In this document: piece after piece, positions 14,094-60,680 of the stretch | Position numbering within the stretch: the stretch's first letter is position 1 | Layout of the letters: every line of letters starts with the position of its first letter | Assembly: GCA_963792175.1 (NCBI GenBank) | Contig: CAWBVG010000053.1 | Span: 65,013 to 129,012, forward strand | Length of the DNA stretch: 64,000 nt | Reading direction: 5' to 3' | Source: an uncultured Acidobacteriota bacterium | Lineage (GTDB): Bacteria > Acidobacteriota > Vicinamibacteria > Vicinamibacterales > CAVVIG01 | Translations under genes and position numbers: made by a program | Notes under the pieces: model-generated | What the model was told of the DNA's origin: nothing | The model's input: only the letters and a program-made list of their open reading frames with translations | Databases searched by the model: none

Positions 14094-16100
14094 ATGCCGC
14101 AGGCCGTGCCGACCAGAAGCCGCGTGACCGAGCTCTTCGAACAGTACCAGTTCGATCTCCATCAGCGGACGGATCGGCTGTTTGCCGGCCTGCTGCGCTT
14201 TCCAATGGATCGCCGGCATCCTGTTCGCGCTGTGGATCTCGCCGCTCGCGTGGTCGGGCACCGTCAGCCGAACGCACGTTCACGTCTGGGCGGCGATCGT
14301 TCTCGGCGGCATCATCAATCTGTTTCCGGCGGCGCTCGGCATCCTGAGACCTGGCCAGCCGTCGACCCGCTTCACGATCGGCGTCGCCCAGATGCTGATG
14401 GGCGCCCTGCTGATCCACCTCACGGGCGGACGCATCGAAACGCACTTCCACGTGTTCGGCTCGTTGGCGTTCCTGGCGTTCTATCGTGACTGGCGCGTCC
14501 TGATTCCCGCCACCATCGTCGTGGCGCTGGATCACATGCTGCGCGGCCTGTTCTGGCCGCAGTCGGTGTATGGCGTGTTCGTCGCGAGCCAGTGGCGCTG
14601 GCTCGAGCACGCGGCCTGGGTGATTTTCGAAGACGTGTTCCTGCATGATGTCGTGCGTCCGCGGCCTGGCCGAGATGCGGCAGACGGCCGAGCGCACCGC
14701 AGCGCTCGAACAGGAGGTCCGCACGCGCCAGCAGGCGGAGAATGACGAGCGGGCGCTGGCATCGCTGACGTCCGCCATCGGTCTGGCGCTGACGCGCGGG
14801 ACCGAGCTGCGCACGATGCTGCAGCAGTGCACCGAGGCGCTGGTGAAGCACCTCGACGGCGGCCTCGCGCGCATCTGGACGCTGAACGACGCCGAGCGGA
14901 TGCTGGAACTGCAGGCCAGCGCCGGCACGCACACCCAGCTGGACGGCCCGCAGGCGAAGGTGCCGATCGGCGTGCTGTCGGTGGGCATGATCGCCCTCGA
15001 GCGGACACCGCAGTTGTCGCCCGCTCGAACAGATCGACCCGCATGTGGACGACGCGCTCTGGGCGCGCCGGGAAGGGATGGTCGCCTTCGCCGGATATCC
15101 CCTGCTCGTCGACTCGAAGCTGGTGGGCGTCATGACGATCTTCTCGCGCCGCGAATTCTCGTCGTCGGTGCAGGACACGATGGCGGCGGTCGCCGATGGT
15201 GTCGCCGTCGGCATCGAGCGCAAACGCGCCGAGGCGGAGCTGAAACGGCGCGCCAAGGACCTCGAGGAAGCCCACGAGATTCAGCGAACGCACGCACAGC
15301 AGCTGAGCGCGCTCGTCGATCAGCTCCGGGTCACCCAGCGTCATGCGGAGGCGGCGACCCGCGCCAAGAGCGATTTCCTCGCCAGCATGAGCCACGAGCT
15401 GCGCACGCCGCTGAATGCGATCATCCTCTACAGCGAGCTGCTGCAGGAAGAAGCGGCGGACCACGGACAACAGGGATCGATCACCGATCTGCAGAAGATT
15501 CAGTCCGCCGGCAAGCACCTGCTCGAGCTGATCAACGACATCCTCGATCTCTCGAAGATCGAAGCCGGCAAGATGTCGCTGTCGATCGAGACCTTCGACA
15601 TCCGGACCATGCTCGACGAGCTGCTCGATACCGCGGCGCCGCTGGTCCAGAAGAACAACAACCGGCTGAATGTCTACTGCGAGGACGACGCTGGGCACGA
15701 TGGACTCCGACCTGACGAAGACGCGGCAGATCCTGTTCAACCTGCTGAGCAACGCCGGCAAGTTCACCGGGACGGCGCAATCGCGCTCGACGTCCGCCAC
15801 AGCACCATGGCCGGACGGCCGTGCGTCGAGTTCGCGGTCACGGACACCGGCGTCGGCATGACACAGGCCCAGACGGAGAAGATCTTCGAGCCGTTCACGC
15901 AGGCCGACGTGACGACGACGCGCAAGTACGGCGGCACCGGCCTGGGGCTCGCGCTCGTCTCGCGCTTCTGTCAATTGATGGGTGGTTCGGTGGCGGTCCA
16001 GAGCGCGCCGGAAGAAGGCGCCCGCTTCGTGGTCCGCCTGCCGAGGTTGCCGGCCACGACGAGCGCGGTCGACGCCGGCGCACCGGCGAGGGTCGCGTAA
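14094..16100 (+). pseudogene. Sensor histidine kinase (multi-TM N-domain, GAF, HisKA, HATPase_c), about five frameshifts
   Basis: Pieces in ORFs 14094.., 14182.., 14645.., 15045.., 15670... H-box SHELRTPLNAI, N-box LLSNAGKF, G-boxes DTGVGM and GGTGLGLAL. Shifts near 14195, 14640, 15035, 15690, 15775. Confidence 0.85.
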
Positions 16101-16492: not shown

Positions 16493-16542
16493 CGAAGTCT
16501 CAAGACTCAAGTCTCAACTCTCAGACTGAGCTTGAGACTTCG
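16493..16542. repeat. Hairpin built from TCAAGTCTCA words
   Basis: CGAAGTCTCAAG (16493..16504) pairs perfectly with CTTGAGACTTCG (16531..16542). An inner 8 bp with one bulge extends the stem. Starts 6 nt after the receiver gene stop. Confidence 0.8.
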
Positions 16543-24719: not shown

Positions 24720-24797
24720 ATTGGTGAGTTCGGTGAATTGGTGAATTGAGTGAATTCACACTCACCCAATTCACCCATTCACCAATTCGCCAATTGC
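24720..24797. repeat. Long imperfect hairpin built from GGTGAATT / AATTCACC words
   Basis: Left ATTGGTG AGTTCGGTG AATTGGTG AATTGAGTG. Right AATTCACACTCACCC AATTCACCC ATTCACC AATTCGCC AATTGC. Helices of about 6, 7, 7 and 6 bp. Confidence 0.75.
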
Positions 24798-26688: not shown

Positions 26689-26762
26689 GAACTCTCAAGT
26701 TCAAGTCTCAGTCTCAGTGTCCGGGAGCGGGTAAGAGTTGAGCCTTGAAAGTTGAGACTTGA
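26689..26762. repeat. Inverted TCAAGTCTCA / TGAGACTTGA pair with flanking 6-7 nt periodic copies
   Basis: TCAAGTCTCA (26701..26710) and TGAGACTTGA (26753..26762) are a perfect 10-bp pair. The right side reads GAGTTG AGCCTTG AAAGTTG AGACTTG. Confidence 0.7.
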
Positions 26763-34138: not shown

Positions 34139-37100
34139 TCAGTAGGTGAACTTCACCGCGAACTGCATGATACGCGGATCGCCGGCGGTCAGGATCTGCC
34201 CGAAGCTCGCGCTGTTCAACGACGCGACCGGCGCGTTGAAGTTCACATGATTGATCACATTGAACACTTCCCACCGGACCTGCATCGATTGCGCGCCGCC
34301 CAACTTGAAGGTGCGGGTCAGGGCGAAGTCGTTCTGGAGGTTGTTCGGGTTGACGATGGTGAACGGCGCCAGCGGGCTGTAGGTGCCCGTCGTGGGCGAC
34401 GTGAACGCCGCGCGATTCAGAAACGCGGTCGGCCCGCCGGTGCCGTAGGGGTCGTCGAGAATCTGCACCGCCCGCTGACCGCCCAGGCCCGTCAGGGCGT
34501 TGTCGACACCCGTCGTGACGGTCGTGCGGTTCCCCGATTGCCAACGGATAATCGGCGAAAACTGCCAGTCGCCGAGGATCCGGCGAACCGCGCTATTGCC
34601 GAACTCCGGCGTCTGCGCGACCACCGAGAGGCTGACGACATGCCGGCGGTCCGACGCGCAGTACGCGTAGTCGGCGTCCGGGTTCGCCGGATCGACGATC
34701 GTCGGCCCGGTGATTTCAGTCGTCGCCGGATCGCTCATGCACTTCGAGATCGTCCATTTGGACAGCACGCTGAGATTGTTCTTCAGCCGGCGCTGGAGCG
34801 ACAGCAGCAGCGCGCCGTAGTTGGCGCGTCCGGTGTCGTCGAGTTGGCCGATCGTCCCGTAGAACTGTCCCTGTTGCGCGTTCTTCAGGATCAGGGTGCG
34901 GCGCTGATTCGTGTTCCCCGTCGTCGCGCCGGGCCCGAAGACCGCCGGGTTCAGCTCGGTCGCTCTCCAGAGATGACTGGAGTGGTTGCCCAGATAGGCG
35001 ACCGAGGCCAGCCAGTCGCCCATCTGCCGCTCCATGCTCAGGTTCCACTGCTGGAGGGACGTCGGCTCCAGATGCAGCGGGGTATTCACGTAGACGCCGA
35101 ACGCCGGAAACGGCTGCGTCGCCCATCCGGTATTCAGCCCTGGGAAGGGATTGCCGCCCGGGTACCGAGGTACGGATCGGAGAAACCGCCGGCCGGGTTC
35201 GGAAGGGTGATCTGCGCACCCCACGGCGGATTGTTCGCAAAGCGTGTGTTGAAGAACAGATGCGGCGTGTCATAGAACACGCCCCAGGAGGCGCGAACGC
35301 TCATCCGGTCGTCGCCGTTGGGCGTCCACACCACGCCGGCGCGCGGCGCGAACTGCGCGATCTTGCCGAACGACGTGGCGTCGCCCGGATACCCTGAATC
35401 GCCCGGGAACATCAGGCCCGCCGGCGCGAGCGGATAGACCGTGCTGCGGACGTTCTGATCGAACCGCGACTGATCGAAGTGGCTCACCCAGGAATACGTG
35501 TTCTCCACCGGCAGGAACGGCTCCCAGCGCAGACCCAGATTGAGCGTCAGATTCGAACGGACGCGCCAGTTGTCCTGCACGTACGCGCCCACGTAGTCGC
35601 TGTGGTCGTAGTCGTAGACCGGATTGCCCTGGAGAAAGCCGCCGCTCACGCTGCCGACCATGAAGTCGGCGAGCGAGAGACCGGTCGTCTGGCCGTTGAA
35701 CGTGAACGCGCCGTTGGTCGGCCGGTTGTTCAGCGTCTCGATGCGCGACCGAATCCAGTTGCCGCCGATCGACAACTGGTGCGTTGCCCCGGATCAGATC
35801 GACGTCGTCGGCGATCTGCCATCCCTTCGAGTTGAAGTAGCCCGGGTTGGTGGCGCCCGAGCCGACGGAGAAGCCGTTGCCGGTGACGCTGACGCCGACA
35901 TAACCCGGCACCAGGCTCGAGACGCGCGACCCGAGGTCGGTGGCGCTGAAATACGGCGGCAGCGGGCGATCGTTGAGCGTGCGGTTGTAGGTGATGTGCA
36001 GCGAGTTGAGCGTCGTGGACGAGATGACCAGGTTGTGGCCGACGACCAGCGAATGCGCCTGGTTGTTCTGGCCGGTGCGGCTGAGCGTCAGCACGTTGCT
36101 GCCGTCGTAGGTGGCCGGGTTGTCGTAGACCGCGTAGAAATAGCGCGCGAACAGCGATTGATTCGCGTTGATCGTGTAGTCGACTTTCCCCAGCGCCTGA
36201 TGCTCGGTGCTGTTGTTCGGAATCCCGTACTGCAGCCGGCCGCAGGGATCGTTCGACACCGGCACGTGCTTGAGGAAGTTCAGCGTCACCGGATTCAACC
36301 GCGACGGATCGATTCGGTTGCCGTTGCCGAAACGGGCCGGTCAGGGTGATCTGGCGGCCGGCGTTGCACGCCGGCGACGTAATGGCGGTGAAGTCGCCGT
36401 TCAGCATCGCCTGCGTCGGCACGAAGCTGATGGTCGTCGCCGGGTTGCTCTTCTCGATGCGCCCCTGGTAGCCGCCGAACACGAACAGCTTGTTCTTGAT
36501 GATCGGCGCGCCCAGCGTGCCGCCGAACTGGTTGCGATTGAGGCTGTCGCGCTCCGGCGCGAAGAAGTTCCGCGCGATGAAGTGGTAGTTGCGCAGGAAC
36601 TCGAAGGCGTCGCCGTGAATCTCGTTCGTGCCCGACTTGGTGACCAGGTTGACCGCGGAGGCCGCGTGATGGCCGTAGCGTGCCGGCAGCGCGCTGGTCT
36701 CGACCTTGAACTCCTGCAGCGCGTCGGGGAACGGCGTCGGCAGGTTCAGGTTGTTGAACGGGTCGTTGTGCGTCCCGCCGTCCATGATGTAGGTGATGCC
36801 GTTGGCCTGCCCGCCGGCGACCGAGATGGTGACCGTCGGGAAGTTCTTGTTGGTGTTGAGGTCGCCGGCGGGCGCCGCCGTGGCGAGGCCGGACAGGAAG
36901 ATCAGCTCGGTGGCCTGCCGCCCGTTGAGCGGCATTTCCATGATGCGCTGGTTGTCGATCACCTGGCCAACGCCGGTGTTGCGGGTTTCGACCATGTAGG
37001 AGTTGGCGGTGACCGTCACCTGCTCGCTGATCGCGCCGACCGCGAGCGTGACGTTGATCTCGGGGTTCGATGCCCACCTGCAGGACGATCCCGTCGCGAA

Positions 37101-37374
37101 TGTAGGTATTGAAGCCCTGCAGGACGACCTTCAGCTGATAGGGACCCACCGGAAGGTTCGGCAGCGCGTACGAGCCGTCGGCACCCGTGAACGCGGTTCG
37201 GATCGCTCCGGTATCGGTCTTCGTGGCGGTGACTTCCGCCCCGGGAATCGCGCCCCCGCTCGAGTCGCGGACGACGCCAGAGAGTTGCGAGCCGGCAATC
37301 GCCTGCGCCGACGCGGTGCCGTTGGTGAGGAGCCCGAGCACGACCATGCCGATGACCGCTCGAAACAGTTTCAC
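34139..37374 (-). pseudogene. TonB-dependent outer-membrane receptor with CarboxypepD_reg-like N-domain, four frameshifts
   Basis: GTG 37374 with GGAGG SD and a signal peptide. SGVVRDSSGGAIPGAEV. Plug region. C-terminal IMQFAVKFTY. Pieces in ORFs 36295.., 35730.., 35270.., 35134.., 34139... Shifts near 37070, 36330, 35790, 35165. Confidence 0.85.
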
Positions 37375-37448
37375 GTGAGTGCCTCCTGCAGCCGACATTT
37401 CTGTCAGGGTCGGCACGTTAGCACCCGTATTGCCACAACCCAATGGTG

Positions 37449-38289: not shown

Positions 38290-39711
38290 ATGGCTGTGGC
38301 GACGGCACCCGCACGAACCATCACGCCCGAGGAGCAAGCGATTGCGGACGCGCTGATCGCGCGCGCGCAAGGCCGCGATGCAGGCGGTCGACACCTACGA
38401 TCAGGCCGCAGTCGATCGGCTGTGCCGCGCCGTCGCCTGGGCAGGCGGAAACGAGGCCACCGCCACCCGGCTCGCGCGGATGAGCGTCGACGAAAGCGGG
38501 ATGGGCAGTCCGCGAACCGAAGCGGCGCGCCAAGGTGCTCGGCATCCTCCGCGACGCGCTCCGGCAGAAGAGCATCGGCATCATCGAAGAGATTCCGGAC
38601 AAGGGGATCGTGAAATACGCGAAGCCGGCCGGCGTGATCGCGTCGCTGATTCCCGTGACCAGTCCGTACGTGACGCCGATCGGCATCGCGATCTACGCGA
38701 TCAAGTGCAAGGACGCCGTGATCTTCTCACCGCATCCCGGCAGCCGCAAGACGACCAACGAAACCGTGCGCGTCATGCGCGCGGCGCTGCGCAAGGCCGG
38801 CGCGCCGGAAGATCTTCTGCAGTGCGTCGAGCGGCCGAGCATCCCGCTCGCGAACGAGCTGATGCGCCTCTGCGACCTGACGATCGCGACCGGCGGACCG
38901 GCGATGGTCAAGAGCGGCCTACAGCTCCGGCAAGCCGGCCTACGGCGTCGGCGCCGGCAATGCGACGATGGTCATCGACGACACCGCGGACATCGTCGAA
39001 GCCGCGCGCAACACGCGCATCAGCAAGACCAACGACCACGGCTCAGGGTGTTCGGCGGACGGCAACGTCCTCGTCGACGCCGCGATCTACGACGCCTTCC
39101 TGCAACAGCTGCAGGCCGAGGGCGGGTATCTGGTGAGCGGCGCGGAGAAGGCGCGCTCGAAGCCGCGTATTGGGACGCCGACGGACACCGGACTCCCGAG
39201 ACGATTGCCCGTGCGGCGTCGGTCGTGGCCGAGCGCGCCGGTTTTACGATCCCCGACGACAAGACATTCCTGATCGTCGAGGAGCAGCACATCGGCAAGG
39301 CAGCATCGCTTCTCGACGGAAAAGCTCGGCACCGTGCTCGCGGTATTCAAGTACGACGGCTTCGATCAGGCGCTCGACAAGGTGCGTCAGATCTTCGAGA
39401 CCGGCGGCAAGGGACACTCGTGCGGGATTTATTCCTACGACGACGACCACATCCATCGCCTCGCGCTGGTCGCGCCGGTGAGCCGCATGATGGTCCGTCA
39501 GGTGCAGTCGGCGTCGAATGCCGGCACGTTCACCAACGGCATGCCGATGACGTCGAGCATGGGCTGCGGCGTCTGGGGCGGGAACATCACGAACGAGAAC
39601 ATCTCGCTCAAGCACTACATGAACGTGACCTGGGTCAGCCGGCCGATTGCCGAAGACCGCCCGTCCGAGCAGGAACTGTTCGGCGAGTTCTACGGCAGCG
39701 AAACCTTCTAA
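38290..39711 (+). pseudogene. Aldehyde dehydrogenase family, CoA-acylating type (EutE/PduP/SauS-like), about five frameshifts
   Basis: ATG 38290. Pieces in ORFs 37720.., 38378.., 38535.., 38968.., 39334... Catalytic Cys context NDHGSGCSA. Shifts near 38375, 38525, 38920, 39150, 39310. Confidence 0.7.
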
Positions 39712-39730: not shown

Positions 39731-41507
39731 ATGAGCACAGTTGCGCCCCGCACCGTCGAGCGAACCGAGAAGGCGACGCGAGACCCGGATCGCCTCGTAC
39801 CTGCTGACCGAATACCTGGAGCGCCTCGGCGTCGACGTGATCTTCGGCTTGTGCGGACACACGGTCATCGCGTTTCTCGACGCGCTCGGCAAGAGCCGCA
39901 TCCGGTTCGTCTCGACGCGCCACGAACAGGTGGCCGCCCACGCCGCCGACGGCTACGCGCGCGCCTCGGGCAAGACGGGCGTGCTGCTGACGCATCTGGG
40001 TCCGGGCCTGACCAACGCGTGCACCGGCGTGGCGAACGCGGCGCTCGATTCGATTCCGATGGTCGTGATCGCCGGCGACGTGCCGTCGCATTACTTCGGC
40101 CGGCACCCGCACCAGGAGGTCAACCTCCACCAGGACGCCGACCAGTGCCAGATCTACCGGCCGTTCTGCAAACGCGTCTACCGCGTCGACCGCGTCGAGG
40201 ACTTGCCGCGCATCATCGAGCGCGCGTTCCACCTCGCGCAGGCGGGACGGCCCGGCCCGGTGCTGGTCGACGTGCCGATGGACATCTTCTCCGCCGATCT
40301 GCCGATCGACGCCTTCCAGCAGCTGCCGGCGCGCGATGTCGCGGCCGACCCTCGATGCCGCCGACCGTGGCGCGCATCGTCGACGCGCTCGCGTCGGCCG
40401 AGCGCCCGGTGCTGTACGCCGGCGGCGGCGTCCTGTCGGCGCGGGCGACCGTCGGAGCTGGCGGCGCTCGCCGAGGCGCTCGAGGTGCCGGTCGCGCACA
40501 CGCTGATGGGCAAGGGCTGCCTGCCGGAGGATCACCCGCTGCTGCTCGGCCAGACCGGATTCTGGGGCACGCCGATCTCGAACGACAAGTGCCGGACCGC
40601 CGACCTCATCGTCGCCATCGGCACGCGCCTCGCCGAAGCGAACTCGAGCTCGTGGGATCCGCGCTTCACCTTCTCGATTCCGCCGACGCGCCTGATCCAC
40701 ATCGACGCCGACGAAGCGGAGATCGGCCGCAACTATCCCGACCGAGCTCGGCGTCGTCGCCGACGCGAAGCTGGCGCTCGGGGCGCTGGCCGCCGCGGCG
40801 CGCGGCAAGCGCCATCGCGATCGCGGCCGGCTGCGCGAGGAGATCGCGCGCGGCCGGCAAGGCGTTCGCGGCGAACTGGGATCACCAGTGGAGCTCGGAT
40901 CAATACCCGATGCGGCCCGAGCGGATTCTCGCCGAGCTGCGCAAGGCCGTTCCCGAGGACGGGTTCATCGTCACCGACGTCGGCTGGAACAAGAACGGCG
41001 TCGGCCAGCAGTTTCCGATCACCGTGCCCGGCACGTTCATCACGCCCAGCGGTCTGGCGACGATGGGGTTCGGCCCGTCGGCGGTGCTCGGCGTCAAGAT
41101 GGCGCATCCCGATCGCGCGGCCGTGTCGCTGATCGGCGACGGCGGCTTCAGCACCAACCCATCGGTGATCGCGACGGCGATGGAGGCGGAGCTGCCGGTC
41201 GTCTGGCTGGTGATGGACAACGCCGGCTTCGGCACGATCGCCGGCCTCGAATCGATGCACTACGGCTCGAGCTTCGGCTGCATGTTCGAGCGCTGCGGCA
41301 AGCCGTACACGCGTCGACTACGCCGCGATGGCGCGCGCGTGCGGCGCGCGCGGCGTGATGATCGAGTCGGCCGCCGATCTCGGCCCGGCGCTGCGCGAGG
41401 CGCTCGCCTCGAACCTGCCGACGGTGATTCAGGCGCCGATGGAAAACGCGCCGACGCCGACGCCCGGCCACTGGAACATCAACGACATCTACCGCAAGGG
41501 CGAGTAG
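39731..41507 (+). pseudogene. Thiamine-diphosphate-dependent enzyme (acetolactate synthase / sulfoacetaldehyde acetyltransferase superfamily), about six frameshifts
   Basis: ATG 39731. GVDVIFGLCGHTV. ThDP motif LIGDGGFSTNPSVIATAMEAELPVVWLVMDNAGFG. Shifts near 39785, 40350, 40455, 40742, 40850, 41315. Confidence 0.8.
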
Positions 41508-51505: not shown

Positions 51506-51521
51506 GGTGTCCTCCCGATCA

Positions 51522-51617
51522 GGGTTCTAGAGTTCTAGGGTTCTAGGGTTCACGCGGCGAACGTTGGAACCCGAAAACAGAACTTTGGAACCCTGAGAAC
51601 TCTGGAACCTTCGAACG
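51522..51617. repeat. Dyad of GGGTTCTA octamers (3.5 copies) facing GGAACCC / GAGAAC units
   Basis: GGGTTCTA GAGTTCTA GGGTTCTA GGGTTC, a 15-nt loop, then GAACCC, CAGAAC, GGAACCC, GAGAAC, GGAACC, CGAACG. Confidence 0.75.
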
Positions 51618-54588
51618 CTTTTGTGAGCGCGTCGAGGTCGTACAGCCGTCCGTCTTTCATGACGCGCTTCACGCGCCGCAGATCTCTGATGTTCGCCAGT
51701 GGATTGCCGTCGACGATCACGAGGTCCGCGAGCTTTCCGGCCTCGATGCTCCCGAGCTGGTCGCCCACGCCCATCGCTTCGGCCGGCACGATGGTCGCCG
51801 TTCGCAGCACTTCCACCGGTGTCAGGCCGCCGGCCGCATAGTTCTCGAGCTCCATCAGGAGACTCAGTCCGTACGGATTGATCGGCGCGTCGGTACCGGC
51901 CGTCACGCGCCCGCCGCCCTTCACGACCTGAAACACCGTGCGCTCCTGCGGCGTCACCAGGCGCGCCGCCTCGTCGATCTGGGCCGGCGTCGCCGGCGTC
52001 GCGCGTCTGATCCCGCCAGCGCTGCGCAACCGACGCGGGATACAGCTGCTGGATCCGCGCATCGTCGATCCACGACGCATCGCGCATCGTCTGCAGCCGG
52101 AAGCCGCCCTGGATGCCGATCGTCGGCGTCAGCGTCATCTTCGAGGCGGTCAACAGGTCGATGACGTCGCGATACGACCGCGAGAGACCGCTGATCTTCG
52201 GCGAGTAGCCGCGGCGGCTGGTGCCGCGAATGTGCTCGACGCCGTCGGCGCCGAATGCGACCGCCGGATAGAGCTCGTGCGACGTCACCGGCATGCCCAT
52301 GCCGTGCGCGGCCTCGATGATGCGCTTCTGCATCTGATCGGGGAGCCGCACGTAGGTCTTGACGAAGTCGAAGTCGAAGTCCTTCGCGCGGGCGAGGACG
52401 CGCGGCAACTGGCCGGTGTCGTCGAGCGAGGTGCCGCCGGGATAGTACACGCGTGTTCCGTCGAACGGCTCGCCGGTCGTGAAGAGCCGCGGGCCGATCC
52501 GGACGCCCGACTCGAAGGCTTCCCGGTTCTCCATCGATTCCGTGATGCTGGTCGCCGGATTGCGGACGCGTGGTGATGCCCCACGAAAGGAACGCGCGGC
52601 CGAGCGCTTCGCCATAGTCCTTGCTCAGATGCGTGTGGATCTCGATCAACCCGGGGATCACGGTGTCGCGAGAGGCGTCGACGAGCTCGCCGATATGGAG
52701 CGCGTCGCGATGCGGCTCGACGCTCCGGATCCGGTGACCGTCGACGACAATGTCGACGTCGGTCTGGAGCGTGTCGGTGCGGCCGTTCCAGAACCGTCCG
52801 GCGTGAATCGTCTTCGTTCCGGTCGGCGCCGCCAGCAGTCCAGGTGAGGTGCGGATCGATCTCCTGGACGATCTTCCCTGACGCGACGTCGACGAGCTCG
52901 AGGCGATCGCCGCTCTGATACAGGAGCCGGCGCGAGTCGCCGGTCCACGTCGGCGATCCCGCGAGCCCGGTGGAGACGGCGCGCGGCGGACGCTGCGGCG
53001 TGCCGTCGCGTGCGACCGGCCAGACGGTGAGCAGGCCGTCGACGATCGCGGCCATCTGCGTGCCGTCGGGCGACCAGACCGGGCCGTAGTCCTCGCGCAT
53101 GCCGATCGACTTGTGCGGCATCGGATCGAACCAGCGATCCGGCTGCCCGTCGAGCGAGATGCGCAGCACCTGATTCGTGCCTTCGCGGAAACGCGTCGAA
53201 TAGACCTTGAGGGACGAGACGATCAGCGCGCGGCCGTCGGGCGACCAGCTCGCCCGGCCGGCCTCGTTGAGATGCTCGTGAGCCCGCGTGACGACGCCGC
53301 TCTTGACGTCGACGAGCTGGATTTGCCCCTCCGGATCGCTGAACGCGATGCGCGATCCGTCGGGCGACCACGAGGCCTGCATCGCCGCCGCTTTCAGGTG
53401 CGTGAGCTGGCGATCGGTTCTGCTCTGCAGGTCGCGCACCCAGATGTTCATCACGCCGTCGCGATCGGTCGAGTACGCGAGCGATCGGCCGTCGGCCGAC
53501 CAGGCGGGATCGGTGTCGAGCGCCGCGTCGTGCGTCAGCCGCTCGGCGGACCCACCGACCGGCATCAGCCACAGGTCGCCGAGCGCGGCGAACGCCACGC
53601 GCGTGCCATCGGGAGCGACCACCGGGTGCATGATGCCGCGCACGGGCTGCGGCCCTCGGAGATCGAACTCGCGCGGCTTCGGCTTGAACCCGGATCGCGC
53701 GAACGAGATGTCGGCGGTCAGCTCGACGACGCGCGCGGGCCCGCCGGCCACGGATCGCCGCTTGATCTTGCCGTCAGCCGTGTACAGCACTTCGGAGGGG
53801 GCGACCCATTGCGGCCGGAACGGAAACACGTCCTCGTCTGGATCCGCGATATTGCGGTCGCCGCCCGTCGGCGCGCTCACCATCAGGCGGCTTCTGCCGC
53901 CCGCAATCACGCTGAACACCATCGTCGATCCGTCCGGACCGAACGCCGGCGCGGCAACCGCACCGTCGACGGCGGCGATCAGCCGCTCGGAGGCGCCGGA
54001 GACATCGGTCGCCATCGCGTAGACGCCGGGCTTGTCGCGGCGATCGGAGACGAACGCGATTTCACCGCTGCTCTTCCACGAGGGATAGAACTCATTCGAC
54101 GGATCCGACGTGACCTGCTTGACCTCGCCGCTCGCCAGCGTCAGCGCCCAGACGTCGTACGAGCCGCTGCGGTCTGAAGAAAACGCGATGCGGCGTCCGT
54201 CAGGCGACCACGCGGGCTCGCGATCGTCGTAAGGACTGGATGTGACCGGTCGCAGGTCGGTGCCGTCGGCCTTGACCGTCCAGATCTGCCAGGTGCTGGT
54301 CCAGTAGGCCTGGAAGGCGATGCGGGTGCCGTCCGGCGACCACGACGGCTGCCGCGCGTCCATCGAGATGTCGGTGATCGGTTTCGCCACGCCGCCAGAC
54401 GCGGGCATGGTCCACAGCGTGCCGAGCAGGTCGATGGCGAGCGTCCGCCCGTCCGGCGACAGCGCGGCCGCCATGTTCGTCCCCTCGTGGAGCGTGACGT
54501 GAACCGAACGGCCGGGTGTGGGTATTTGCGCGCTGACGACGAGCGTCGCGCCGATCAACATCGCGACGGTCGAGAGCTGCCTACGCAT
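51550..54588 (-). pseudogene. TolB-like PD40 beta-propeller fused to a metal-dependent amidohydrolase, three frameshifts
   Basis: ATG 54588 with a leader. Repeated SWSPDG / AWSPDG blades. Amidohydrolase EIHTHL, SHELY, GTDAP. Shifts near 52845, 52570, 52035. The last codons run into repeat 51522..51617. Confidence 0.8.
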
Positions 54589-54607
54589 GTGGTCACCCGG
54601 CCGCTGT

Positions 54608-54679
54608 CGGGGCTGGGGACTGGGGGCTAGCTGCCAATGTTGTTGTCTCTGGACAGCTAGCCCGTAGCCCCTAGCCCCG
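54608..54679. repeat. Hairpin of GGGGCT-type heptads
   Basis: 26-nt arms CGGGGCTGGGGACTGGGGGCTAGCTG and CAGCTAGCCCGTAGCCCCTAGCCCCG pair at 22/26 positions. 20-nt loop. Confidence 0.8.
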
Positions 54680-54690
54680 ATCGTGCCGCG

Positions 54691-55606: not shown

Positions 55607-55696
55607 TGAGGAATCCTACCGCAGGAGACCGAGACCGGGGTCGGATACTGATCCGACCCCTGGCAGGGGCAGGGGTGAGAAATCCTACCGCAGGTG
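55607..55696. promoter_or_regulatory. Two 21-nt direct repeats (TGAGrAATCCTACCGCAGGwG) flanking a perfect 10-bp hairpin, between divergent genes
   Basis: Repeats at 55607..55627 and 55676..55696 (19/21 identical). Hairpin GGGGTCGGAT ACTG ATCCGACCCC at 55637..55660. Confidence 0.35.
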
Positions 55697-55738
55697 CCCG
55701 TCCAGTGCCTTACACTGTGCGATGAAAGCGAGGGCTTT

Positions 55739-57211
55739 GTGGCCATCAACCAGGACGACAAGACCATATCGCGGCGCGAATTCGCCTCCAAAGTGGGTGC
55801 GGTGGCGGCGGGAATCGCAGTCGGCAGTGAATTCCTCAGCTCGAAGGCCGAGGCCGCGGCGGCCGCCGCCCCTCGCGCTGCCCGGCGGATCCTCGGCGCG
55901 AACGACCGCGTCGTGACCGCCAGCATCGGCATCCGCGGTCAGGGCAACTCCCTGAAGCGCGGGTTCGCGAAGCTCCAGAACGTCGAGATCAAAACGCTGT
56001 GCGACATCGACGCCAACCTGGCGCCCGAGCGGATCAACGACGCGCGCCTGAGCGACGTGACCACATTCAAGCCCGGGTTCGTCCAGGACATGCGGCGCGT
56101 GTTCGACGACAAGGACATCGACGCGGTCGTCATCGCCACGCCGAACCACTGGCACGCGCTGGCGACGATCTGGGCGCTCCAGGCCGGCAAGCACGTCTAC
56201 GTCGAGAAGCCGTCATCGCACACGGTGGTGGAAGGCCGCCGGATGGTGGAGGCGGCGCAGCGCTACAACATGATCGTGCAGGTCGGCACGATGAACCGCA
56301 GCCGGCCCGCGGTGAAGGACGCCATCAAGTTCATTCACGAAGGCGGCCTCGGCAAGGTCTACATGGCGCGCGGGCTCTGCTACAAGCCGCGTCCGGCGAT
56401 CGGCAAGTACCCGGATGGGCCGATGCAGCCTGGCGAGAAGTACGCGCTCACGCTGACGTCGACCAACTACGAGCCGACCTACGACGCGCAGTACCTGTCC
56501 AAGGTCGATTACGACCTGTGGCTCGGCCCCGCGGCGAAGCGGCCGTTCAACCGCAACCGCTTCCACTACAACTGGCACTGGCACTGGGACTACGGCAACG
56601 GCGACAGCGGCAACCAGGGTCCGCACCAGTTCGACATCGCGCGCTGGGGCCTGCAGAAGCAGGAACACCCGGTGAAGATCAAGTCGGTCGGCGCCTACGC
56701 CGGCGAGGAATCGTCGCAGGAGACACCGAACTACCAGAACAGCTTCTTCGAATACGCCGACGGCGCGATCCTCGAGTTCGGCACGCGCGGCGGCTTCACC
56801 AACGACGAAGGCAGCGTCAAGATCGGCAACCTGTTCTACGGCACGAAAGGCTGGCTGTGGATCGAGGAGTCAGGGAAGAAATGGCAGTCGTACTTCGGAC
56901 CCAAGAACGAGAAGGGTCCCGGAGCCGACGCGCCCGACGCCGAACCCACCGGCCTGACGACGACGGAGTATCCGCACTACCAGAACTTCATCGACGCCAT
57001 CCGCGCCGGCGATCCCAAGCTGTTGACCTGCGACGTCAACGAAGGGCACCTGTCCTCGACGCTGCCGCACCTGGGCAACATCTCGTACCAGGTCGGCCAC
57101 AGCCTCGTGTTCGACGGGAAATCCGAAACGTTCGTTGACGACAAGAAAGCGGACAAGCTGCTGACCCGCGAGTACCGGAAAGGGTTCGAGCTGCCGAAGT
57201 CGTTCACGTAG
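55739..57211 (+). CDS. Tat-exported Gfo/Idh/MocA-family oxidoreductase
   Basis: ORF 55694..57211. GTG 55739 gives MAINQDDKTISRREFASKVGAVAAG. ASIGIRGQG, VEKP. Intact. Confidence 0.85.
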   Translation: MAINQDDKTISRREFASKVGAVAAGIAVGSEFLSSKAEAAAAAAPRAARRILGANDRVVTASIGIRGQGNSLKRGFAKLQNVEIKTLCDIDANLAPERINDARLSDVTTFKPGFVQDMRRVFDDKDIDAVVIATPNHWHALATIWALQAGKHVYVEKPSSHTVVEGRRMVEAAQRYNMIVQVGTMNRSRPAVKDAIKFIHEGGLGKVYMARGLCYKPRPAIGKYPDGPMQPGEKYALTLTSTNYEPTYDAQYLSKVDYDLWLGPAAKRPFNRNRFHYNWHWHWDYGNGDSGNQGPHQFDIARWGLQKQEHPVKIKSVGAYAGEESSQETPNYQNSFFEYADGAILEFGTRGGFTNDEGSVKIGNLFYGTKGWLWIEESGKKWQSYFGPKNEKGPGADAPDAEPTGLTTTEYPHYQNFIDAIRAGDPKLLTCDVNEGHLSSTLPHLGNISYQVGHSLVFDGKSETFVDDKKADKLLTREYRKGFELPKSFT

Positions 57212-57302
57212 AGAAACCGTATCAGCAACCTTCTGATCGTCATCGGCGTCTGCGCGCTTGGCCTCAACGCGGCCATCGTCGCGCAGACGCCTTCTGCCTC
57301 TG

Positions 57303-57452
57303 CAGCCAGTCCGCAGCCCCGAGCTCGTCGTTCCGTTTCAACAGCTAGCCCCCAGCCCCGAGCCCCTGTTTCCGTTTTTGCAGCTAGCCCCGAGCCCCTA
57401 GCCCCTGTCTCGTTTTCTGCAGCCGAGCCCCCAGCCCCCAGACCCGACGACC
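57303..57452. repeat. 39-nt tandem repeat, about 3.8 copies (CAGCTAGCCCCnAGCCCCnAGCCCCTGTyTCCGTTTTyG)
   Basis: Units start at 57303, 57342, 57381, 57420. Only the C-rich word is present; there is no G-rich partner. Confidence 0.8.
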
Positions 57453-57497
57453 GCGGCCCGGTTCCCCGACGGCGCCGGCCGCGATGCGCTCTTCAAG

Positions 57498-57845
57498 GTG
57501 TGCAAGGACTGTCACGGCCCGGAGAGTGTCCTGGCGCAGCTGAAGTCGCGCGACGAGTGGAGCAAGACGCTCGACGAGATGGCGGCGAACGGCGCGCAGG
57601 GCAGCGACCAGGAGTGGACCGACATCCTCGAGTACCTCGCCAGACACTTTTCACCGATCGCGGTGAACAAGGCGACCGCGACGGAGCTGGCCGCCACCCT
57701 CGATGTGCCGGCTGCCGTCGCCGAAGCGATCGTGCGGGCCCGCACCGAAAAAGGACGCCTGGCGTCGATTGACGATCTGAAACAGGCAGCCGGCGGCGAG
57801 GCCGCGCCGAAGATCGACGCGCGAAAAGATCGGCTCGTTTTCTAA
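57498..57845 (+). CDS. c-type cytochrome domain plus helix-hairpin-helix protein; true 5' end unresolved
   Basis: The ORF begins inside ..ALFKVCKDCHGPE (CxxCH). C-terminal ComEA-like HhH (TELAATLDVPAAVAEAIV, RLASIDDL). A leader-like segment lies upstream in another frame (about 57221..57290). Confidence 0.6.
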   Translation: MCKDCHGPESVLAQLKSRDEWSKTLDEMAANGAQGSDQEWTDILEYLARHFSPIAVNKATATELAATLDVPAAVAEAIVRARTEKGRLASIDDLKQAAGGEAAPKIDARKDRLVF

Positions 57846-57846
57846 C

Positions 57847-57921
57847 GCCACGAAGACACGAAAGCACCCTCGACAAGCTGGGATATGCATTATGGTGAGC
57901 GTGTCGAACCGTCTTCGTGGC
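57847..57921. repeat. Hairpin with CACGAAG-family stem
   Basis: GCCACGAAGAC (57847..57857) pairs perfectly with GTCTTCGTGGC (57911..57921). 53-nt interior. Confidence 0.7.
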
Positions 57922-57940
57922 TAACCCGACGGAAGAAACC

Positions 57941-59593
57941 ATGCGCAGAATCACTGTCTGGACCGTTCTCCTGGCGTGCCTCGCCATCCTGCCGCTGCGC
58001 GGCGCCGAGTGGGTCACGCACAGCGGCGACAATCAGCGCACCGGCTGGCAGAAGAACGAGACCGCGATCTCGAAGGACTCGGTCAAGAACCTGAAGCTGC
58101 TGTGGAAGATCACGCTCGACACCAAGCAGCGATCGGTTTACTCCCTGTACGGTCCGCTGATCGTCGAGCGCGCCATCACGGACCGCGGTTTCAAGGAGCT
58201 GGCGATCGTCGCGGGCGCCGACAACGATCTCTTCGCCGTCGACGCGGACCTCGGCAAGCTGTTCTGGAAAAAACATTTCGAGTGGCACGCGGACGTGCCC
58301 GAAACCACGCAGGCGTCGTTTCTCTGTCCTGGCGGGCTGACAGCGTGGCCGGTGCTTCAGCCACTGCCGCAGCGAGGCCGCGGCGCACCCGCGCCGCCGG
58401 CCGCGCCCGCACCGACTCCGCCCACAGCAACGACGACGGCCCCGGCTGCGGCCGGACCACAGCGAGGCGGCAGTCCCTTCGCGGTCCGCTCGGTGTTCGC
58501 GCTCACCGGCGACGGCAACCTGCAGCAGGTGAACATCAACACCGGCGACACGGCGCCGCCGGTCAAGTTCCTGCCGCCCAACGGCAAGCCGTACAGCCTC
58601 GCGCTGGTCGACAACATCATCTACACGATCACCGGTCAGGGCTGCGGCGGGAACCCGAACAGCGTCTATTCCCTGGACCTGAACGATCCGGCGAAAACGG
58701 TGCGCTACTGGCGGTCGGGAAGCGGCGGGTTGTGGGGCACCGCGGGTCCTGCGATCGGCGCCGATGGAACCGTGTACGCGGAGACTGGCGACGGCCAAAC
58801 CGATCCGGCGGCCAACCGTTACGCCAACGCGGTGATTGCGTTGACGCCCAAGGAATTGAAACTGAAAGACTGGTATGCGCCGACCAATGCCGAGTGGCTC
58901 TACAAGCGCGATCTCGACATGAACGTCACGCCCGTGGTCTTTCCGTACAAAGGCCGCGAGCTGCTGGTCGGCTCGGGCAAAGAAGGGCGTTTCTTCCTGC
59001 TCGACTCGCAGTCGCTCGGCGGCACCGATCACCGGACGCCGCTGTTCCGATCCGATTTGATCTCGAACGAGGACATCGACTTCGCCGGCGCCGGCACGTG
59101 GGGCAGCCTGTCGTCGTGGGAAGACGCGCAGGGGACGCGCTGGGTGCTCGCGCCGGTCTGGGGGCCGAAGCATCCGAGCGCGACGTTCGCGATGAACAAC
59201 GGCGACGCCAACGTCGGCAGCATCGCCGCGTTCAAAGTCGAAGAGAAGGGCGGCAAGCCGGTCCTCACCAACGCGTGGATTTCCCGAAACCTCATGACGC
59301 CGGCGGCACCCGCGGTGGCCAACGGCGTCGTTTTCGCCCTGGCGAGCGGCGAGTGGGTGCGCCAGGCGAACGATCGAGAAGGCGGCCTGTATCAGGTGGA
59401 TGCCCGCGTGCAGCGATCGCAGCCGGCCATCCTGTACGCGCTCGACGCGGCCACCGGCAAGGAACTGTGGTCGAGCGGCAGCCAGGTGACGGCGTTCACG
59501 CACAACGGGCAGCTGACGATCGCGAACGGGCGCGTCTACTTCACGACCTACGACAACACGCTGTACTGCTTCGGCTTCCCGATGGAACACTGA
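57941..59593 (+). CDS. PQQ-like / BamB-like beta-propeller repeat protein, intact
   Basis: ORF 57917..59593, ATG 57941 leader MRRITVWTVLLACLAILPLRGA. HSGDNQRTGW. Pro/Ala-rich insert. Confidence 0.7.
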   Translation: MRRITVWTVLLACLAILPLRGAEWVTHSGDNQRTGWQKNETAISKDSVKNLKLLWKITLDTKQRSVYSLYGPLIVERAITDRGFKELAIVAGADNDLFAVDADLGKLFWKKHFEWHADVPETTQASFLCPGGLTAWPVLQPLPQRGRGAPAPPAAPAPTPPTATTTAPAAAGPQRGGSPFAVRSVFALTGDGNLQQVNINTGDTAPPVKFLPPNGKPYSLALVDNIIYTITGQGCGGNPNSVYSLDLNDPAKTVRYWRSGSGGLWGTAGPAIGADGTVYAETGDGQTDPAANRYANAVIALTPKELKLKDWYAPTNAEWLYKRDLDMNVTPVVFPYKGRELLVGSGKEGRFFLLDSQSLGGTDHRTPLFRSDLISNEDIDFAGAGTWGSLSSWEDAQGTRWVLAPVWGPKHPSATFAMNNGDANVGSIAAFKVEEKGGKPVLTNAWISRNLMTPAAPAVANGVVFALASGEWVRQANDREGGLYQVDARVQRSQPAILYALDAATGKELWSSGSQVTAFTHNGQLTIANGRVYFTTYDNTLYCFGFPMEH

Positions 59594-59620: not shown

Positions 59621-59704
59621 GCCACGATAAGCCACGAAAGCACGAAAGATCAGCTAGCTCTCGAGAGATGCTCCGTATCTTCGGTGTTTTCGTGTTTTCG
59701 TGGC
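59621..59704. repeat. Hairpin with CACGAAA-family stem overlapping the FGE translation start
   Basis: 59631..59648 pairs with 59687..59704 over 18 consecutive pairs (16 Watson-Crick plus 2 G-U). An extra GCCACGATAA word sits at 59621. Confidence 0.8.
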
Positions 59705-60680
59705 TGGCTTGCCGTCGTGGCCGCGACGGCGGTCGTTGTCGGCGCGTGCACGAAGCCGCCGGCGACGGCGCCACGCGGAATGATCCGGATCCCGGGCGGC
59801 ACGTTCCACATGGGATGCGCCGATTGCGGGATGCCGGACGCTGAACCCGTGCATCTCGTCGCCGTCGATCCGTTCTGGATGGACGAAACGCCGGTCACCA
59901 ACCAGCAGTTCGCGGCATTCGTCGCCGCGACCGGATACGTGACCATCGCCGAACGGATCCCCGACTCGAAAGACTACCCGGGCGTCCCCGTCGACAAGCT
60001 CGTCCCGGGTTCTGCGTGCTTCCGGCCTCCAGGCCGCCCCGTGCCGCTCGACAACCCGAACGCGTGGTGGGCGTATCAGCCGGGTGCCAGCTGGAAGCAG
60101 CCAGAGGGACCCGGCAGCAGCGTGCAGGGCAAGGACGATCATCCCGTGGTCCATATCGCGTGGGACGACGCGCAGGCGTATGCGGCGTGGGCAGGCAAGC
60201 GCTTGCCGACCGAAGCCGAATACGAATTCGCGGCCCGCGGCGGCCAGGACGGAAAACATTTCGCCTGGGGCGACGACCTGAAACCGGGCGGCCGATGGCC
60301 CGCCAACATCTGGCAGGGCCAGTTCCCGTCGCAGGACGCCGGCGAGGATGGCTATCGCGGGACGTCGCCCGTGAAGGCGTTTCCGCCGAACGGGTATGGC
60401 TTGTACGACGTCGGCGGCAACGTCTGGCAGTGGTGCTCGGATTGGTACCGTCCCGATTACTTCGCACAGTTGAATGCGCAAGGCACCGCGCACAATCCCA
60501 CCGGGCCGAGCGACAGCGTGGATCCGCAGGAGCCGGGCATCCCCAAGCGCGTCCAGAAAGGCGGCTCGTTCCTGTGCAGCGATCAGGTACTGCGCGCGCT
60601 ATCACGTCGGCAGTCGGGGACGCGGCGCCGCTGACAGCGGCGGCACGAACGTGGGGTTTCGATGCGTGAAGCCGGCGTGA
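59668..60680 (+). pseudogene. Formylglycine-generating enzyme (SUMF1/FGE family), two frameshifts
   Basis: RIPGGTFHMGC, WWAYQPGASWKQPEG, GGSFLCSDQYC..VGSRGRG. The ATG 59668 lipoprotein-type leader joins if one T is removed near 59710. Extra G near 60587. Confidence 0.85.

Follow-up and report, generated by a model that had tools for sequence, protein, structure and literature searches.

The 39-nt tandem array at 57299-57455 is, on comparison with its orthologues, a coding linker between an export leader and a haem domain and not an intergenic repeat. It lies in the window, a stretch of 64,000 nucleotides from an uncultured Acidobacteriota bacterium. The best explanation of the locus, held as a whole with fairly high confidence, is that 57221-57845 is one gene for an exported c-type cytochrome consisting of a leader, a disordered linker, a haem domain and a helix-hairpin-helix (HhH) domain. 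The same joint reading comprises a coding array, units derived from a scattered hairpin, a frame break caused by assembly error and a likely ATC start.

The features of the locus are the following.

55694-57211, +: Gfo/Idh/MocA oxidoreductase gene (Gfo gene; Pfam GFO_IDH_MocA and C-terminal domains) with a SRREF twin-arginine-type leader and a TAG stop at 57209-57211
57212-57220, +: putative short untranslated spacer from the Gfo stop to the proposed start; its length varies out of frame
57221-57223, +: proposed non-canonical start ATC of the cytochrome gene, in an invariant GTATC
57221-57289, +: predicted leader of 23 codons, (M/I)SNLLIVIGVCALGLNAAIVA followed by QT
57299-57455, +: variable linker of four 39-nt (13-codon) tandem units (Tandem Repeats Finder, translation, copy number in relatives), with the peptides SAASPQPRARRSV / STASPQPRAPVSV / FAASPEPLAPVSF / SA(A/P)(G/S)PQPPDPTTA in units 1-4
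57342-57366, +: CAGCTAGCCCCnAGCCCCnAGCCCC, the scattered C-rich arm word, copied exactly in unit 2
57381-57405, +: exact copy of the same arm word, in unit 3
57421-57426, +: site of one surplus base (A57421 or A57426), which shifts leader and linker into a frame other than that of the haem domain
57462-57845, +: mature protein from FPDGAGRD, a mono-haem cytochrome c followed by a ComEA-like HhH domain (Pfam, homologues, model)
57501-57515, +: CKDCH motif
about 57654-57791, +: ComEA-like helix-hairpin-helix domain (HHH_3)
57843-57845, +: stop codon of the cytochrome gene
54607-54680, no strand assigned: reference hairpin copy between two minus-strand genes, with the G-rich arm at 54607-54633 and the C-rich arm at 54654-54680

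Array, orthologues and copy number

Tandem Repeats Finder placed a period-39 array at 57299-57445 (3.7 copies, 78% matches, score 159), which is the strongest tandem array in the window, the next-best score being 76. Allowing one extra base, four units can be counted at 57299-57455. They agree with one another at 23-31 of 39 positions, and the period is a multiple of three, as the first-pass annotation of the letters had stated.

Unit 1: TCTGCAGCCAGTCCGCAGCCCCGAGCTCGTCGTTCCGTT
Unit 2: TCAACAGCTAGCCCCCAGCCCCGAGCCCCTGTTTCCGTT
Unit 3: TTTGCAGCTAGCCCCGAGCCCCTAGCCCCTGTCTCGTTT
Unit 4, extra base in brackets: TCTGC(A)GCCGAGCCCCCAGCCCCCAGACCCGACGACCGCG

The window has 11 copies of the word AGCCCCnAGCCCC where 0.34 would be expected by chance, and those within the array (57347-57445) are all on the + strand, so that the early description of direct copies only is correct. 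The units had also been described as sharing the word of the right hairpin arm, and CAGCTAGCCCCnAGCCCCnAGCCCC is indeed exact in units 2 and 3. Read in the frame of 57212, the region gives RNRISNLLIVIGVCALGLNAAIVAQ and then 13-aa units, with no ATG, GTG or TTG; re-translation reproduced both the leader-like stretch and the units as first given. The other two frames contain TAG, one of them in units 2 and 3, matching the two-unit TAG reported at the outset, and the other in unit 3. Within the gene the repeat word is always read as (S/T)-A-S-P-(Q/E)-P-x-A-P. Outside the coding frame CAGCTAGCCCCnAGCCCCnAGCCCC always has a TAG in one frame, and has one in the other frame when its second variable base is T.

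The protein search yielded 281 homologues and the metagenome scan 80 loci. At five related loci in Acidobacteriota assemblies, three of which are labelled Vicinamibacterales, the same protein is encoded as a single uninterrupted ORF, and at the closest two of those five (L001 and L002) the ORF starts with Met and a signal peptide. The ORFs of the relatives begin with a hydrophobic leader of 23 codons; a short Pro/Ser/Ala/Gln linker comes next, followed by a cytochrome c domain with CxxCH and finally by the ComEA-like HhH domain. In L001 leader, linker and CxxCH follow each other without a break (MTRVTAALEIAIAVAVLTATTIAQTTSTSQPPETPAMTTASRFPPGPGRD; in a fuller reading of the protein MTRVTAALEIAIAVAVLTATTIAQTTSTSQPPETPAMTTASRFPPGPGRDALFKVCKECHG). 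The window frame after 57212, RNRISNLLIVIGVCALGLNAAIVAQTPSASAASPQP..., is homologous to the L001-type leader and the frame of the ORF at 57498-57845, ...SPQPPDPTTAARFPDGAGRD..., to the end of the L001-type linker. The closest metagenome locus, L025, has a mature domain 99% identical to that of the window and DNA 96.7% identical over 3.4 kb, and it encodes the whole in a single frame: RNRISNLLIVLGVCALGLNAAIVAQTPSISSAGPWPTALVSVSTASPQPLDPVSFSAPGHQPPDPTTAARFPDG. The best cytochrome match in the genome collection is 69% identical.

The ORF across the array is thus continuous in all relatives and interrupted by one base in the window. Because the leader and the linker end of the window match orthologues in which they are joined in one frame, as in L025, the array is read as a coding linker. 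The first-pass annotation had offered two explanations, a repeat captured as a Pro/Ala/Ser linker and a fortuitous resemblance to a leader. The orthologues join a homologous leader in frame to the cytochrome domain, which speaks for the former, and the latter is contradicted by the homology of the leader itself. In the alignment the orthologous ORFs neither start near 57498 nor carry an unrelated leader. In the model of the homologue P0001, most residues of the N-terminal leader and linker (1-4 and 21-38) have a pLDDT below 50, and values of 81-97 are reached in most of the folded part; the homologous linker of this protein is accordingly predicted to be disordered.

The number of linker units differs among the relatives, every one of which is in frame.

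0 units: L035, L083, L037, L019, L022
1 unit: L029, L032, L033, L052, L088
2 units: L026, L028/L015
3 units: L025, L031
4 units: window

After removal of the extra base in the window all differences in linker length are 0 mod 3, and the window equals L025 plus one 39-nt unit and one base at 57421. Soil-metagenome contigs with flanks that for the most part match the window at 90-99% identity gave the same range of units. Position 57324 is joined to 57427 in contig X1 with 23 nt between, 57313 to 57361 in X3 and X5 with 8 nt between, and 57293 to 57461 in X25 with 64 nt between. In X13 the leader runs directly into unit 3, and in the RNA contig X15/X18 position 57296 is joined to 57379 with 10 nt between. 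In contig X27 the last part of unit 1 is followed without a gap by units 2, 3 and 4, with one base fewer than in the window. This supports the four-unit allele independently; the count of four rests on this one metagenome contig. The expected copy-number variation among strains is therefore present, at 0-4 units across relatives and metagenome contigs, and the repeat number, which could have been an assembly artefact, recurs in X27. Copy number changes by whole codons, so that the reading frame is kept in soil strains with anything from 0 to 4 units. Such changes could arise by slippage, or by unequal recombination of one unit with another.

Coding variable-number tandem repeats are known in Pro/Ala-rich linkers of bacterial envelope proteins. 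The array resembles them in a period that is a multiple of three, in a copy number that varies among close strains and in a disordered Pro/Ala/Ser segment. It differs from them in a unit that appears to have been seeded by a scattered noncoding repeat, and in its position between an export signal and a cytochrome domain. The array is a fresh example of known phenomena, the coding variable-number repeat and the uptake of repeat DNA into a gene.

Origin of the repeat unit

The reference hairpin at 54607-54680 has 27-nt arms that are 85% complementary and a 20-nt loop, and its right arm holds CAGCTAGCCCCnAGCCCCnAGCCCC. This 25-nt word has 45 exact copies in the genome collection, 34 in the Vicinamibacterales MAG SMAG_U9489 and 9 in the related SMAG_U9522. 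Many of the copies form a hairpin GGGGCTnGGGGCTnGGGGCTAGCTG - loop - CAGCTAGCCCCnAGCCCCnAGCCCC, and with a strict pattern the G-rich partner arm is found within 90 nt in 16 of 45. The C-rich arm also occurs in direct arrays, its copies separated by a short spacer at a period of 39-43; one such array comes right after a stop codon (L143) and another just before a start codon (L108). A codon-usage model assigns 44 of 45 other copies of the word to noncoding sequence, the same model also miscalling the coding linker as noncoding. The word is absent from the close relatives L035, L083, L037, L019 and L022 and from the more distant orthologues examined. In soil metagenomes the contigs pile up over 57342-57405 to two to four times the depth seen in the flanks, and many of their ends there are loose; the word is for this reason taken to be multi-copy in soil populations too.

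Each unit of the array would consist of the 25-nt C-rich arm of the scattered, REP-like hairpin element and a 14-nt tail, the arm being read in the frame that gives (S/T)ASP(Q/E)PxAP within the gene. The original proposal of a captured intergenic element fits a word that belongs to a scattered and mostly noncoding hairpin family. On balance a fragment of this family seems to have entered the linker and to have been amplified there. The direction from element to gene is no more than probable, because the linkers of the relatives show no clean insertion footprint, with only one hairpin arm present, and because there are intermediates such as L052. Linkers with one unit exceed word-free linkers by only about 3-4 residues.

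These same observations leave some room for convergence, in which a Pro/Ser/Gln-rich linker drifted towards the arm by slippage of a 7-nt AGCCCCn motif. The more distant L001 already has an S/Q/P-rich linker, TSTSQPPETP, partial forms occur in L052, L029 and L032, and neither a target-site footprint nor a second arm accompanies the word. However, the match spans 25 nt and includes the non-periodic CAGCTAGC head at the hairpin centre, the sequence in L033 (TCAGCTAGCCCCCAGCCCCCAGCCCCGA) is almost the same as that of the intergenic copies, and direct arrays of arm plus spacer with a period of 39-43 are found at noncoding sites. Convergence is consequently possible but rather unlikely, and entry of a piece of the repeat family into the linker is the preferred origin.

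Rickettsia palindromic elements (RPEs) and other intragenic repeats (ERIC, BOX) are found in frame inside genes (PMC10969869). As with RPEs, a scattered palindromic family would here give an in-frame peptide segment to a conserved protein in a tolerant region (PMC10969869), and orthologues without the segment exist. Unlike an RPE, the array has one 25-nt hairpin arm and not a whole element of ~150 bp inserted in frame, it was then amplified in tandem, it has no discrete insertion boundary, and the host is a free-living soil acidobacterium. REP-type repeats are similar to the family in being short imperfect palindromes with many scattered copies, mostly intergenic and often just after stops. 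The family differs from them in arms made of three tandem 7-nt words and in direct one-arm arrays. The array itself consists of C-rich arms only, in direct orientation, with no hairpin-forming palindrome (fold z +0.67), and this copy is coding whereas REP elements are extragenic. In a free-living soil bacterium, noncoding repeat DNA would thus be raw material for a disordered protein linker, with a natural range of 0-4 units.

Several other hairpins of the window have arms of tandem 7-8-nt words. Together with the reference copy at 54607-54680 they lie at 24732-24783, 51519-51596 and 59630-59705, and each uses its own word (GGTGAATT, AGGGTTCT, CACGAAAG or GGGGCTn). Tandem 7-8-mers are also found at 16495, 26704-26762, 34088, 2926 and 8238. 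Hairpins with tandem-word arms look like a general class in this genome. A second repeated module, roughly CGTAGCGCGAAGGCTTCAGCCGAGCG, is present in the loops or beside the C-rich arms in L106, L109, L117, L118, L120 and L122, and the scattered elements therefore appear composite.

Frame break

The first-pass annotation predicted that one frame change near 57460 would join the array to the cytochrome ORF. One change is sufficient, as predicted, but it is located at 57421-57426. The base at 57421 is absent in L025, L031, X3, X4, X5, X13 and X15/X18, that at 57426 is absent in L026 and X27, and that at 57424 is absent in L088. The length differences to in-frame relatives (-79, -40, -103, -73, -73 and -40) are all 1 mod 3. 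Deletion of A57426 gives ...VSFSAAGPQPPDPTTAARFPDG, which from AAGPQPPD onward is the residue sequence of L026. The extra base does not lie in a homopolymer.

A hidden Markov model of codon usage found about 50 same-strand frame switches in the 53 kb of coding sequence in the window, and the number of frame breaks is put at about 40-50, a rate of about 0.75 per kb coding or roughly one per 1-1.5 kb. When frames are stitched, single domains run across the junctions: TPP_enzyme_M (Pfam) is complete at 1-137 of 137 across two junctions, Amidohydro_1 (Pfam) covers 1-344 of 345 across two junctions, and TPP_enzyme_C and Aldedh (Pfam) each span one junction. The assembly is error-rich, massive genome decay being far less likely. 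Since 0.75 breaks per kb make one break in a 625-nt gene unremarkable, the break in the window is very probably a sequence error and not biology. The broken frame, which had been raised as an objection to a coding array, thus comes down to one extra base in an assembly full of such breaks.

Frame-breaking indels were seen, for example, at 51613-54501(-), 39778-41502(+), 34141-37377(-), 14206-15957(+), 38527-39708(+) and about 60600(+). The well conserved genes with such indels are an amidohydrolase, a TPP enzyme, a TonB-dependent receptor, a histidine kinase, an aldehyde dehydrogenase and a sulfatase-maturase-like gene, the last of these, near 60600 (+), apparently being broken by an extra G.

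It is improbable, though conceivable, that the break is real and that the cytochrome gene is a recent pseudogene of this strain, following imprecise slippage or conversion in unit 4. The extra base is inside the repeat and outside any homopolymer, and the many differences from L025 in units 1 and 4 suggest local conversion. Of the words in a 9.9-kb stretch, at most 55% were present in any public run, and the window-specific words at 57392-57455 were missing from all of them, so nothing in the runs contradicts a private allele. A real mutation private to this strain is possible to that extent, because reads of the source organism itself were not found among the public runs. Against a pseudogene, the ~0.75 breaks per kb coding fall within well conserved domains and are not accompanied by stop codons or decay, one break per 625-nt gene is expected from this background alone, the mature domain of 127 residues is intact and 99% identical to L025, and all other strains are in frame.

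Units 1 and 4 were compared with L025 over the segments 57299-57337 and 57416-57445. About 12 of 45 positions differ in unit 1 and several in unit 4, while the flanks differ at ~3%, and in both units the window version is closer to the scattered repeat word than the L025 version. Gene conversion, or mis-polishing by reads from other copies of the word, is a conceivable cause of these differences.

With roughly one frame-breaking indel per 1-1.5 kb of coding sequence, any finding in the window that depends on a change of frame, on the lack of a start or on an ORF in pieces should first be checked against relatives.

Start codon, haem domain and neighbouring genes

All 15 distinct sequences of the clade, which come from several independent metagenome assemblies, have GTATC unchanged. 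The distance from the Gfo stop to CGTATC is 5, 6, 7, 8, 13 or 14 nt in the relatives, and since this length preserves no frame the spacer between the two genes is not coding. From ATC to GCGCAGACG there are exactly 69 nt in 13 of 13 sequences. No in-frame ATG, GTG or TTG is found upstream of ATC in 12 of the 15 sequences (the window and 11 of 14 relatives), nor is there a canonical start inside the leader of the window or of several relatives. The missing canonical start is genuine and common to the whole clade, not an artefact; what the window shows at 57209-57223 recurs in L015-L037, L052, L083 and L088. The absence of ATG, GTG and TTG from the frame, noted at first as an argument against translation, was thus correctly seen, but it loses its force as an objection because the relatives share the invariant ATC.

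The ATC at 57221, located 5-14 nt past the Gfo stop within the clade, is the likely start. The GAG at 57211-57213 resembles a weak ribosome-binding site, 7 nt before ATC, and initiation would probably be coupled to termination of the Gfo gene 9 nt upstream. Initiation from AUC in E. coli reaches roughly 0.02-3% of that from AUG (10.1101/063800). The gene resembles the AUU-initiated infC and pcnB of E. coli (10.1101/063800) in having a conserved near-cognate Ile codon and no canonical alternative. It differs from them in that the codon is AUC and not AUU, and in a position 5-14 nt past the upstream stop, which suggests re-initiation. The whole clade appears to start its cytochrome gene at AUC directly after the gene of the likely redox partner.

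The leader is homologous to the ATG-initiated leaders (MRARTA.../MTRVTA...) of more distant orthologues. These orthologues have no Gfo gene directly upstream, and Gfo abuts the leader only in the ATC clade. The 23 codons are hydrophobic, end in IVA before Q and are conserved in the clade; if started at ATC, the leader of the window has no positive charge. It is predicted to be a Sec-type signal peptide or a signal anchor, and would supply the export signal that periplasmic haem attachment requires. A test of codon positions in the leader was uninformative (127 synonymous against 395 non-synonymous pairwise codon differences), and the leader was judged by its conserved length and hydrophobicity in place of such counts. 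A lipoprotein signal at IGVC was rejected, as Val stands directly before Cys. This is not typical of the lipobox consensus. A 14-nt block of the leader at 57245-57259 (GGCGTCTGCGCGCT) is identical in 13 relatives, third positions included, and the neighbouring codons vary.

Production of the cytochrome by read-through of the Gfo TAG, or by programmed frameshifting or phase variation in the C-runs of the repeat, is highly improbable. TAG and leader share one frame in the window, L025, L028, L032 and L052, but the leader is out of this frame in L019, L022, L026, L029, L031, L033, L035, L083 and L088. Because the frame of the leader relative to the Gfo stop differs among relatives, read-through is not conserved, and it was rejected on this ground. 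C4-C5 runs are present in the repeat, but they are short, the relatives need no shift, and the breaks of the window occur everywhere.

No RNA structure (fold z +0.67) and no Rfam match were found for the array, and no terminator or promoter was found between the Gfo and cytochrome genes or around the array. A reading of the array as an RNA element was dropped, since it had neither structure, Rfam match nor terminator. A noncoding reading of 57212-57497, as an intergenic array that might stabilise the transcript or act as a terminator, with the gene starting at GTG 57498, is barely credible: a canonical start is missing before the leader, the codon-usage model scores 57208-57414 as noncoding and most copies of the word are extragenic, but a start at 57498 would cut off any export signal together with the conserved FPDGxGRDALFKV segment, the leader is in frame in all orthologues and exactly 69 nt long in 13 of 13 sequences, the length of the linker changes only by whole codons, and RNA structure and terminator are lacking.

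The coding reading thus gives a leader and linker followed by a haem domain, in which C54, C57 and H58 of CxxCH are invariant in 36 homologues. The HhH domain is supported by HHH_3 (Pfam, 34.4 bits against a cut-off of 27) and by a fold match to ComEA 8dss_B (probability 0.99, rmsd 2.0 A). Cytochrome_CBB3 (Pfam) scored 18.6 bits, below its cut-off of 27, and SorB (NCBIfam) 21.9 against a cut-off of 93, with a weak fold match to SorB 2blf_B. A fold search with the whole model gave weak matches only, all with E >0.4.

The conserved gene order is a xylose-isomerase-like TIM-barrel gene (-), Gfo/Idh/MocA (+), cytochrome c-HhH (+) and a PQQ-like propeller gene (+), the last of which follows in the closest relatives L015-L018 and not in L019-L024. 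Glycoside 3-dehydrogenase is the NCBIfam family that the Gfo protein matches best, with a score under the cut-off. One RNA contig covers the 3' end of Gfo, the leader, a two-unit linker and the cytochrome domain, and the two genes are probably co-transcribed. The Gfo/Idh/MocA protein is the likely redox partner of the cytochrome, which would accept electrons from this periplasmic dehydrogenase.

Cytochrome c_y of Rhodobacter capsulatus has a 30-residue helix, a 69-residue linker and a 100-residue cytochrome domain, and the length of its linker sets which partners the haem domain can reach (PMC7876108). The likeness lies in the layout: in both proteins a hydrophobic segment at the N-terminus is followed by a linker that is long and flexible, and then by a cytochrome c domain of class I type. 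The window protein differs in the HhH domain after the haem domain and in its likely partner, a Gfo/Idh/MocA dehydrogenase and not bc1 or cbb3. RPEs, coding variable-number repeats and c_y are none of them a strict family match to this gene. A more speculative and doubtful extension is that the hairpin repeat was captured and amplified as a length-variable tether that sets the reach of the haem, combined with AUC re-initiation after the dehydrogenase gene throughout the clade. If this were so and the leader were an uncleaved anchor, both the amount and the reach of the cytochrome would be tuned by unusual means.

Downstream of the cytochrome gene, three 1-nt gaps are found at 57926-57932 relative to L015, L016, L018, L025, L027, L028, L031 and L032. 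Directly after these gaps comes the ATG at 57941 from which the PQQ-like propeller gene is likely to start, and the GTG at 57917 that is listed as its start is probably a wrong assignment.
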